Shown here: positions 41,342-43,691 of the stretch, piece by piece
Layout of the letters: the number at the start of each line of letters is the position of its first letter
Numbering within the stretch: the stretch's first letter is position 1
From: Alphaproteobacteria bacterium
Lineage (GTDB): Bacteria > Pseudomonadota > Alphaproteobacteria > Rs-D84
Assembly (NCBI GenBank): GCA_009784815.1
Contig: WQXN01000001.1
Location: 65,857-129,856 of the forward strand
Direction: 5' to 3'
Length of the DNA stretch: 64,000 nt
The notes under the pieces: model-generated
Told to the model about the DNA's origin: nothing
Databases searched by the model: none
Seen by the model: only the letters and a program-made list of their open reading frames with translations
Made by a program: the position numbers and the translations under genes

Positions 41342-42753
41342 GCAAGTTTTTTCGCCATAGTCTGATTGACTATTCCGGGGTTGGTGCGTCCGCCTGACTG
41401 TTTCATCACCTGGCCTACCAGCCATCCGATCACTCCGGTCTTGCCGGCCTTGTACTGGGCTACTTGATCCGGGTTTGCGGCTATGACTTCGTCTATTATC
41501 GCTTCGATCGCGCCCATATCGGTAGTTTGTTTAAGGTTATGCTTTTCGACTATTTCCAAGGGGGTTCCTTCGCCTGCAAGCATTCTTGCGAACACATCCT
41601 TTGCGATCTTTCCGTTTATCGTATTGTCCGCGATCATATCGACCAATTCGCCAAGATCGGCTGGCTTGATATTATGATCGGGATGCGCGAATAATTCTGA
41701 AATCATCCAATTAGCGACAGGTTTCGTGCGGCTGGATTTTCCAGCTACGGCCTCTTCGAACCAGTTCGATATTTCCGGCTTTTCGATCAATAATGCCGAG
41801 TCGGATTCCCTAAGACCGTATTCTTTTATAAACCTGGCTTTACGGGCCGAGGGCAGTTCGGGCAGGCTGGCGCGGATCGCTTGGATCTGTTCGTCGGTCA
41901 CTATCAAAGGCAACAAGTCCGGGTCCGGAAATAGCGGCGCGGATTCTTTGGGGCGAAGGGATGATGTCTCTCCGGTGGCGGATGAATAACGGCGGGTTTC
42001 CTGTATAACCTCCTCGCCGGATTCGTACGCTTTGATCTGGCGCCGGGCTTCATATTCTATTGCGGCTTGGATGAATTTAAAGCTTGTCATGTTCTTGATC
42101 TCGCACCGGGTGCCAAAGCTGGAAGATCCGATTTTCCGCACCGACACGTTTATGTCGGCGCGCATGCTTCCTTCTTCCATATTGCCGTTCGAAGCCCCGA
42201 CCGTCCGGGCTATCGCCTGAAGTTCGCGTAGATAATTTGCGGCCTCGGCCGGAGACCTTATGTCGGGCTTGGACACTATTTCCATCAATTCGACCCCAAG
42301 CCGGTTCAGGTCTACGAATGACTTGATCGGGTTCTTGTCGTGAAGAAGTTTGCCGGCGTCCTGTTCGATATGTATCTGCTGTATGCCAACGCGTTTCATA
42401 TTGCCATGGTCGTCATGTATGTCCAAATAACCTTCGCCTACTAGGGGAATAGTTTGTGATATCTGGTATCCCGAAGGGTTGTCCGGGTAAAAATAAAGCT
42501 TTCGCGCGAATATGGATTCATTGTTTATTTTGGCGTTTATCCCAAGGCCCATCCTTATTGCTTGCTGGACGCAGAACCAGTTCGGAGTGGGTAATGTGCC
42601 CGGCAACGCCGCGTCGAAAAACGATACTTGCGAGTTCGGACGCGTGCCGGGTTTATAGTCCGCCGACGCCCCCGAAAATAATTTCGATTGTGATAATACT
42701 TCCATATGGGTTTCGATCCCGATCACCACTTCCCAGCCGTTTATTTCGTACAT
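41338..42753 (-). CDS. gatB: Asp/Glu-tRNA amidotransferase subunit B
   Basis: WEVVIGIETHMEV, NSQVSFFDAALPGTLP, C-terminal YqeY-like tail. 471 aa. Confidence 0.95.
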   Translation of the reverse strand: MYEINGWEVVIGIETHMEVLSQSKLFSGASADYKPGTRPNSQVSFFDAALPGTLPTPNWFCVQQAIRMGLGINAKINNESIFARKLYFYPDNPSGYQISQTIPLVGEGYLDIHDDHGNMKRVGIQQIHIEQDAGKLLHDKNPIKSFVDLNRLGVELMEIVSKPDIRSPAEAANYLRELQAIARTVGASNGNMEEGSMRADINVSVRKIGSSSFGTRCEIKNMTSFKFIQAAIEYEARRQIKAYESGEEVIQETRRYSSATGETSSLRPKESAPLFPDPDLLPLIVTDEQIQAIRASLPELPSARKARFIKEYGLRESDSALLIEKPEISNWFEEAVAGKSSRTKPVANWMISELFAHPDHNIKPADLGELVDMIADNTINGKIAKDVFARMLAGEGTPLEIVEKHNLKQTTDMGAIEAIIDEVIAANPDQVAQYKAGKTGVIGWLVGQVMKQSGGRTNPGIVNQTMAKKLA

Positions 42754-43691
42754 TATTTATTCTCCAATATTTTGCCCGCCAGCGATAGGCATCTTAAGTC
42801 GTCAAATCTTTTTCCCGCTATATGTATGTTTCCGATTGAAGTTACGGGATGGCCGATCAAATCGGGCAAGACTGATCCTAGGCGCTCGGTTATTATAAAA
42901 TCATATTTTAAAAGCAAGGAATCTAGCTTGTTCGTAAGTAATTGGCGCGCTTTCAATGCCTGATCAAGAAGAGCTTGGTCCGACATTATCGCCGCGCCTT
43001 TAATTATTAGTTCTTTTGTTTCTTTTGTGAACCCTTGGGCGCGGGTCTTATAAAACATATCCACCGCGTCTTTTGTTCCTTCCGCGCGGAATCCGTATCT
43101 TACTCCGTCGTATTTTGCCAGGTTCGAGAAGGCTTCTACCGCCTGTATGGCCCGGTGAATGCAGCCTCTTTGAATTATATCCGGTTCGTTTAACTCGTCT
43201 TTTGATATTTTGGCGCCGCTTAAAGAATCAAGTTTGTCAATTCCTATAAGGCCGATTTTAAGGCCGGTAGTATCAAGCGGCGCATCAATCAATTTTGTAT
43301 CTGCGCTGGTGGCGTCTTTTGGGTCAAATCCGGCGATAGTATTTAGAATTAGTTTTGCTTCATTGATATTTTTAGATGCTATGCAAGTGCCGTCCATCGA
43401 GCTGTTTCGCGATATAACCCCGAATCTTGACACCAATCCGTAGGTGGGCTTATGTTCTACGCAAGTTCTGTTTGTAATTTCATCAAGTGTTGCGGAAGAT
43501 ACGAGCGGCCCGCAAAATTCCTTGAACGGAGTAATTTTTTCAAATTTCGCCCCGGCTGCCGAAAGCTTTTCGTTGACGGTAGATTCGTACGGCGGTATAA
43601 AATTTTCAAGCATTCTGCTGCCGGCTGTGGTTTTTATTCCCTTTGTGCAGAACAGGTCGCTTATGAATAGGTTAAGGTCGCTTATGTTCAT
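42753..43691 (-). CDS. gatA: Degenerate GatA-like subunit lacking the amidase signature (312 aa)
   Basis: Retains [24 protein letters not shown] and [21 protein letters not shown]. The GGSSGGSAAAVA / GSDTGGSIRxPA block is absent, and the KDN lysine position reads S. Sits between gatC and gatB. Confidence 0.7.
   Translation of the reverse strand: [312 protein letters not shown]

Follow-up and report, generated by a model that had tools for sequence, protein, structure and literature searches.

What becomes of a tRNA amidotransferase whose glutaminase subunit has lost its active site? GatCAB is described as a glutaminase and a transamidase that are obligately coupled and connected through an ammonia tunnel, and it is essential wherever glutaminyl-tRNA synthetase (GlnRS) or asparaginyl-tRNA synthetase (AsnRS) is missing. 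In the 64,000-nucleotide stretch analyzed here (the window; contig WQXN01000001.1 of an alphaproteobacterium, positions 65,857 to 129,856), the open reading frame (ORF) between gatC and gatB encodes only 312 amino acids (aa). A sequence-only reading of the window had singled out this ORF, flanked by genes of 96 and 471 aa, as a GatA stripped of its active site, and our ORF coordinates agree with it. Based on the comparisons below, this remnant is a vertically inherited gatA, and its protein, as judged by alignment, has lost the residues of the catalytic triad and the glutamine pocket. Its codons are still under purifying selection. The nitrogen of the tRNA amidotransferase probably does not come from glutamine hydrolyzed in GatA, and free ammonia is its most likely source.

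Descent of the short gatA and loss of the glutaminase site

By synteny and phylogeny, the 312-aa ORF is the gatA orthologue and was acquired by vertical descent. The order exo1, ruvX, gatC, gatA, gatB, miaB, ybeY-lnt and onward is common to five related loci (L082, L084, L085, L086, and L087), which were recovered from the closest full-length GatA and the closest GatB matches, and the remnant lies where these relatives carry gatA. A phylogeny built from five housekeeping genes groups the window lineage as sister to L082 and L084. GatA is full-length (483–492 aa) in each of the five syntenic relatives, and only the window lineage has the short form, which is accordingly a derived state restricted to it. 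The nearest match of the remnant protein is a full-length 485-aa GatA from a metagenome-assembled genome labeled "Rickettsiales bacterium", and a scan of genome contigs with the remnant protein returned canonical GatAs only. By sequence, the remnant derives from an alphaproteobacterial GatA, and full-length alphaproteobacterial GatAs are its nearest relatives.

The assembly of the short gatA is correct. The source contig (ENA ERZ27264051, k141_6361525; 238 kb) comes from a termite-gut metagenome, and such an origin would favor an assembly or binning artefact; an assembly deletion had been named in the sequence-only reading as a possible refutation. However, Logan contigs of two runs (X1 and X2) cover positions 41300–44100 at ~21x depth without one difference from the contig, and the MEGAHIT-type assembly is identical to the Logan assemblies at every base, free of variants and joints. 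The X1 and X2 contigs are both exactly 81,947 nt with near-equal depth, though filed under different studies and years; they are thus probably one data set filed twice and are not counted as independent, a point in favor of the artefact. An independent low-coverage run (X3) contributed three fragments that are 100% identical to the contig, one of them across the gatA/gatB junction. Moreover, the remnant differs from its relatives by many separate in-frame deletions and hundreds of substitutions, with no single missing block. The short form is upheld by these public runs, and an artefact is hardly credible.

The remnant is still recognizable as GatA at the profile level. Against the Pfam Amidase profile PF01425, a check that had been proposed for this ORF, it scores 97 bits, split into three separate stretches (gathering threshold, 27 bits). 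Against the NCBIfam gatA model TIGR00132, it reaches 158 bits in two stretches, below the cut-off of 481 bits, compared with 508–523 bits for the sister proteins. The generic amidase models give at most 45 bits each, PRK07139 excepted, compared with the 158 bits of the gatA model.

Residues were mapped by alignment to solved GatA chains and to relatives, and Staphylococcus aureus numbering was reached through a sister protein. No member of the Ser-cisSer-Lys triad is retained. The catalytic Lys79 is replaced by Ser11, the cis-Ser154 is deleted, and the nucleophile Ser178 corresponds to Glu71, which lies within an unalignable linker of low confidence. The sequence-only reading had found Ser in place of the Lys of the KDN motif and had reported the triad segment as missing; both observations hold, and the alignments to structures and relatives reveal no misalignment that hides a triad. 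Similarly, three glutamine-binding residues are gone, with Y309 replaced by His179, R358 replaced by Leu228, and D425 deleted. The glutamine-binding roles of the Arg and the Asp are as given in PMC4027206. The Gly/Ser-rich signature (GGSSGG...GSDTGGS) is found neither in the remnant nor in any of the six reading frames of the window, which contain no further GatA fragment either. With the triad, the signature, and the glutamine pocket gone and a score at a third of the family cut-off, the remnant cannot be a glutaminase. As a caution for annotation, this gene is named "Amidase" or GatA from its domain match though its product is unable to be an amidase.

At least seven in-frame deletions remove ~173 residues, or ~35% of GatA. 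All insertions and deletions are multiples of three, and the ORF is clean, without frameshift or stop, as had been noted. The remnant lacks S. aureus residues ~10–77, 128–166, 187–190, 266–280, 371–373, 406–427, and 443–451 and the C-terminal tail. Apart from the tail, the deletions measure ~67 residues (N-terminal), ~45 (core), and then ~15, 3, 21, and 10. The first eight residues of the remnant, MNISDLNL, align with M-KLTDLTL of the relatives, which places the N-terminal loss inside the gene, as an in-frame deletion, and indicates that the original start is kept. Hence, the loss of some 60 N-terminal residues proposed from the sequence alone is real, but it is not terminal. Likewise, the segment of ~55 residues said to have been replaced by ~14 is indeed lost, but the change is larger, with ~45 residues deleted and ~30 more unalignable.

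The retained parts are unevenly distributed (Table 1). The best-kept blocks are residues 12–47, 80–100, and 186–203, which fits the recognizable GatA blocks described earlier. Over residues 10–47, 23 of 30 clade-fixed columns are retained. The block at 186–203 carries the GatA-type motif SNLxRYDGxRYG in a 12-residue stretch, and the GatA-type motifs retained in the whole remnant are TKGIxTTAGS, KPTYG..SRFG, and SNLxRYDGVRYG. Asp100 corresponds to S. aureus D211, which is presumably a tunnel residue. The linker at 48–79 keeps 5 of 24 fixed columns, its replacements are no better than random, and it lacks a codon-usage signal.

The predicted fold is consistent with these observations. An AlphaFold2 model built from a 111-sequence alignment has a mean predicted local distance difference test (pLDDT) value of 75 and a predicted template modeling (pTM) score of 0.78, with low confidence only at residues 1–5 and 54–75; within the linker, pLDDT falls below 50 over residues 54–75. 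The top Foldseek matches of the model are GatA chains, with TM-scores of 0.80–0.83 on query length. The model leans on homologues, and it is in this sense of consistency, rather than proof, that the retained parts appear to keep a GatA fold.

Selection on gatA, gatC, and gatB

To compare rates, the amino-acid branch of the window lineage was related to the sister path on a fixed topology. The ratio was 10.6 for GatA, 3.8 for GatC, 1.9 for GatB, and 0.8–1.5 for four control proteins, and the neutral window branch at four-fold sites was ~0.78 substitutions per site. Synonymous sites are saturated, and so are pairwise dS and dN/dS; the branch lengths of the codon branch model were therefore fixed from four neighboring control genes. 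Over 230 well-aligned codons of gatA, dN/dS (omega) was 0.42 on the window lineage and 0.10 in the relatives. Omega = 1 was rejected (likelihood-ratio test statistic, LRT, 84; p = 4e-20), as was an equal omega for both (LRT 130), so that the dN/dS comparison suggested in the sequence-only reading speaks for constraint. The two unalignable segments together gave an omega of ~2.2 (relatives, 0.10) and behave as non-homologous or unconstrained sequence. The control genes showed no difference, with omega values of 0.10–0.19 on the window lineage and 0.08–0.22 in the relatives.

Simulated drift gave a similar picture. Neutral drift of the sister codons to the observed 45% identity needs a d of ~0.3–0.4 and predicts 6–8 stops in gatA, whereas none is observed (probability of none, ~5e-4 to 2e-3). 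Of 145 columns in the well-aligned parts that do not vary among the four nearest relatives, the remnant keeps 90. Its replacements in these parts have a mean BLOSUM62 score of −0.02, compared with −0.72 ± 0.20 in simulation, and this value was reached in none of 300 simulations; the replaced segments have a mean of −1.09, with replacements that look random. Amino acids are kept identical despite 61–67% of their four-fold sites differing. Furthermore, codon usage is gene-like in frame 0 only, at 0.25 bits per codon compared with 0.23–0.37 in the neighbors, with the exception of the linker at 48–79. A freely drifting pseudogene is ruled out by the rejection of omega = 1, the absence of stops, the in-frame indels, and the conservative replacements.

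The partners of GatA were assessed in the same way. GatC scores 62 bits on Pfam GatC and TIGR00135 (cut-off, 47 bits; sisters, 59–63 bits) and keeps R-E-D of the RxD motif, the C-terminal YFAVPKM, and helix 1. However, 17 of its 48 clade-fixed columns are changed, including ~7 of 9 in helix 2, and omega is 0.37 on the window lineage compared with 0.145 in the relatives. The two helices of GatC pack against GatA (PMC4027206). The helix 2 changes, read from sequence, fit co-adaptation to a remodeled GatA or a loss of the contact with GatA, and the joint acceleration of GatC and GatA may lend indirect support to a GatC/A/B heterotrimer.

GatB scores 341 bits on GatB_N, 147 bits on GatB_Yqey, and 467 bits on TIGR00133 (cut-off, 315 bits; sisters, 500–534 bits). 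It retains 268 of 302 clade-fixed columns (89%), and omega is 0.133 compared with 0.077 in the relatives. The equivalents of the Mg/ATP ligands E10, H12, E124, E150, N192, and S196 are present, as are those of S19 and N52, which contact GatC; these roles were taken from PMC4027206. GatC scores normally against its family profile, but gatB is not as fully intact as the sequence-only reading described it. Three residues of the DYRYFP(E/D)PD motif of GatB are gone, and the last Tyr is Leu. LDYRYFPDPD is found in all five relatives and in 119 other GatB proteins, and DYRYFP in all four solved GatB structures; the DYRYFPEPD motif is not mentioned in the literature searched. In addition, Gln takes the place of an Arg that does not vary among 119 relatives. 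Changes of this kind, specific to the lineage and at positions without variation in 119 relatives and four solved structures, would be expected if the whole complex had changed function and GatB no longer amidated tRNA-bound Glu or Asp. This explanation appears very improbable, given the kept Mg/ATP ligands, GatC-contact residues, and YqeY tail, the TIGR00133 score well above its cut-off, and a gene context that suggests no alternative.

GatB stayed constrained while GatA gained ~30% excess replacements and its deletions, which indicates that GatB was under selection after GatA was already dead. The case for a still-working enzyme rests mainly on this constraint. Collectively, the remnant, GatC, and GatB are under continued, though relaxed, purifying selection.

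A second explanation sees the remnant as a relic that is being lost, with its frame held open only through translational coupling to gatB or polarity, or with the whole of GatCAB abandoned, for example after a gain of GlnRS and AsnRS. Several observations weigh in this direction, against a functional scaffold, or both. The GatA branch is ten-fold longer than those of its sisters, with a four-fold higher omega and correspondingly relaxed constraint, and deletions in gatA are repeated. GC content at third codon positions is 0.45 in gatA and 0.43 in gatC, compared with 0.52–0.63 in all other genes examined, and GC at four-fold sites is also below that of the orthologues, which fits weaker selection or lower expression. 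Retained sites cluster only marginally once the unalignable segments are removed (runs test, p = 0.085). GatC is accelerated, and so is GatB, which has lost DYR of its universal motif and the invariant Arg; on sequence grounds, the GatB changes could reflect an enzyme that is failing or changing function as a whole. The junctions are tightly coupled, with a zero gap between the gatC stop and the gatA start (GAATAA|ATG) and one nucleotide shared by the gatA stop and the gatB start (TAATG). Finally, the remnant is a singleton, with no second genome carrying the short form found, and none of the RNA runs contains the stretch.

Other observations argue against a relic. The rejection of omega = 1 applies to the well-aligned codons, and by our own estimate the mean BLOSUM62 score of neutral changes mixed with 16–25% old conservative ones would be ~−0.4, not −0.02. 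A spacer of 939 nt that served no purpose could be eliminated in a single step with coupling kept; instead, the GatA-specific motifs are the best-kept parts. Moreover, gatB has its own GGAG a few bases upstream of its start, and GatB (omega 0.13) and GatC are far from neutral. We therefore consider a relic unlikely, although it deserves to be kept in view. Between the two options raised in the sequence-only reading, a scaffold-only GatA is the better supported, because of the omega of 0.42, the absence of stops, the in-frame indels, the conservative replacements, and the constraint on GatB and GatC; partial decay of the pathway keeps some probability, given the relaxed constraint, the acceleration of GatC and GatB, and the GatB deletion.

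Source of the amide nitrogen

A dead GatA could be tolerated if another ammonia generator encoded outside the window, such as a foreign canonical gatA or an unrelated glutaminase or asparaginase, docked on GatB or on the remnant; the enzyme would then still depend on an amide donor. A kept remnant would fit such a docking platform, and the DNA seen amounts to ~95 kb of the 238-kb contig. However, no amidase, glutaminase, or asparaginase gene was found in or beside the operon or elsewhere in the window, and in each of the relatives the only gatA is the one within the operon. Furthermore, a search with the sister GatA against 5.8 billion proteins recovered the four known clade members at 72–78% identity and then only a large distant cluster at 67–69%, with no further gatA orthologue at 70–80% identity. 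Since this collection holds the GatB and the dead GatA of the contig, a second, vertically inherited gatA of the window lineage is not among its proteins. On the DNA and the protein collection covered, another generator is an improbable explanation.

The synthetases that bear on the need for transamidation were sought as well. No aminoacyl-tRNA synthetase is present among the window ORFs scanned, and the window contains no tRNA genes. In the ~30 kb beyond the window end, a bacterial-type aspartyl-tRNA synthetase (AspRS) and dnaA were seen, and no GlnRS or AsnRS. The AspRS has 588 aa, with anticodon-binding, class II core, and GAD domains, and its start lies ~29 kb beyond the window end; dnaA lies ~13 kb beyond it and adjoins dprA and plsY.

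The same flanking DNA holds a divergent PP-loop protein of 528 aa, ~19 kb beyond the window end and adjoining a phage-type integrase. Its residues 90–344 match the GuaA ATP-pyrophosphatase with 135 bits, below the cut-off of 339 bits, and it was rejected as a canonical GMP synthase. A glutamine amidotransferase domain is missing from it, and we do not take this protein as evidence for ammonia use.

On balance, we consider it somewhat probable that GatA persists as a non-catalytic structural subunit and that GatB uses free ammonia. GatA and GatC stabilize GatB in GatCAB. Mutations in GatA lower the stability of GatB (PMC8406222), and GatC is needed for GatA to fold and to join GatB (PMC2330236). 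In addition, an amidotransferase with its glutaminase bypassed works on ammonium chloride, and a destabilized glutaminase site even enhanced this ammonium-driven activity (PMC4027206). In the proposed course, gatA would have been hollowed out by in-frame deletions, and the remainder would be kept as a translated, folded, non-catalytic subunit that still assembles with GatC and GatB. The amide nitrogen would no longer derive from glutamine hydrolysis within GatA. Instead, free ammonia, which may be plentiful in the gut, would reach the GatB site through the remaining tunnel, with its upstream end now open. We infer complex formation, ammonia as the donor, and a continued need for transamidation. 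The fuller proposal is that of a natural GatCAB turned glutamine-independent: the minimal 312-residue GatA would serve only as a scaffold or open funnel, and free ammonia would be what GatB uses to amidate mischarged tRNA. This proposal is possible and is put forward tentatively. No glutaminase-dead GatA was described in the literature searched.

If this proposal is true, the remnant would delimit the portion of GatA that GatB and GatC actually need, and its losses would provide a natural deletion map that separates GatA elements for structure from those for catalysis. It would also demonstrate that a living cell can run one half-reaction uncoupled from the other, and it would point to ammonia as a physiological donor.

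Mapped features and comparison with known systems

The features of the operon and its surroundings are listed in Table 1.

Table 1. Positions of the features discussed, in window coordinates unless another locus is named
Feature	Position	Strand	Remarks
gatC	43692..43982	−	96 aa; adjoins the remnant gatA
GatC helix 2, residues ~27–40	43854–43895	−	heavily remodeled on the window lineage
gatA orthologue, shrunken, glutaminase-dead	42753..43691	−	312 aa, between gatC and gatB
Catalytic Lys K79 (S. aureus) to Ser11	43659..43661	−	codon AGC, ISDLF; from structure and relative alignments
GatA residues 12–47, conserved block	43551..43658	−	36 residues; aligns to residues 77–116 of 4wj3_A
GatA residues 48–79, unalignable replacement linker	43455..43550	−	in the place of the Gly/Ser-rich signature GGSSGGS...GSDTGGSIR
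GatA residues 80–100, conserved block	43392..43454	−	21 residues; 13/19 fixed columns kept
GatA residues 149–185, poorly conserved segment	43137..43247	−	3/17 fixed columns kept; spans the 15-residue deletion; holds His179
GatA residues 186–203, best-kept block	43083..43136	−	18 residues; 14/16 fixed columns kept
gatB	41338..42753	−	471 aa
GatB GIQQIH	42370..42387	−	RIERIH in relatives; invariant Arg to Gln
GatB residues 270–279, ESAPLFPDPD	41917..41946	−	DYRYFP(E/D)PD motif minus three residues (SAP---LFPDPD)
Tandem paralogues	45112–46673	+	268 and 250 aa
YbeY-Lnt fusion	38286–40079	−	597 aa
dnaA	L089:13124–14473	+	beyond the window end
Start of AspRS gene	L090:20174–20666	+	beyond the window end
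PP-loop protein	L090:10668–12254	−	beyond the window end

Two neighboring features were recorded as well. The tandem paralogues are 39% identical to each other. They are placed ~1.1 kb upstream of gatC, on the opposite strand, with exo1 on one side and the next gene on the other. Their resemblance to class I methyltransferases is weak (Pfam E = 0.1), no relative of theirs has a solved structure, and L082 lacks them at this position. The in-frame YbeY-Lnt fusion is not peculiar to the window genome; a single gene with YbeY, LNT_N, and CN_hydrolase domains is present in all five syntenic relatives (596–668 aa).

Compared with canonical GatA (TIGR00132; S. aureus 2DF4, Aquifex aeolicus 3H0L, Pseudomonas aeruginosa 4WJ3, and Thermotoga maritima 3AL0), the remnant is alike in operon position, coupled junctions, modeled fold, and motifs. 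In contrast, it has 312 rather than ~485 aa and lacks the triad, the Gly/Ser-rich signature, and the Y309/R358/D425 pocket. Yeast GatFAB with a truncated GatF likewise offers transamidation by GatB with the glutaminase bypassed, and there the weakened site favored ammonia (PMC4027206). However, the yeast case is a laboratory situation in which GatA is intact, whereas the lineage described here is a natural one whose glutaminase has been erased genetically. AtzE-AtzG (PDB 6C62), which is among the fold matches of the remnant, is an amidase derived from GatA with a small partner derived from GatC, and its role in tRNA amidation is changed. AtzE is nevertheless a full-length, active amidase without a GatB partner, while the remnant is inactive and lies beside gatB. 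Similarly, archaeal GatDE has a GatB-type kinase/amidase that works without GatA; GatE uses a dedicated asparaginase-like GatD, in contrast to the operon and window described here, where no such partner is seen.

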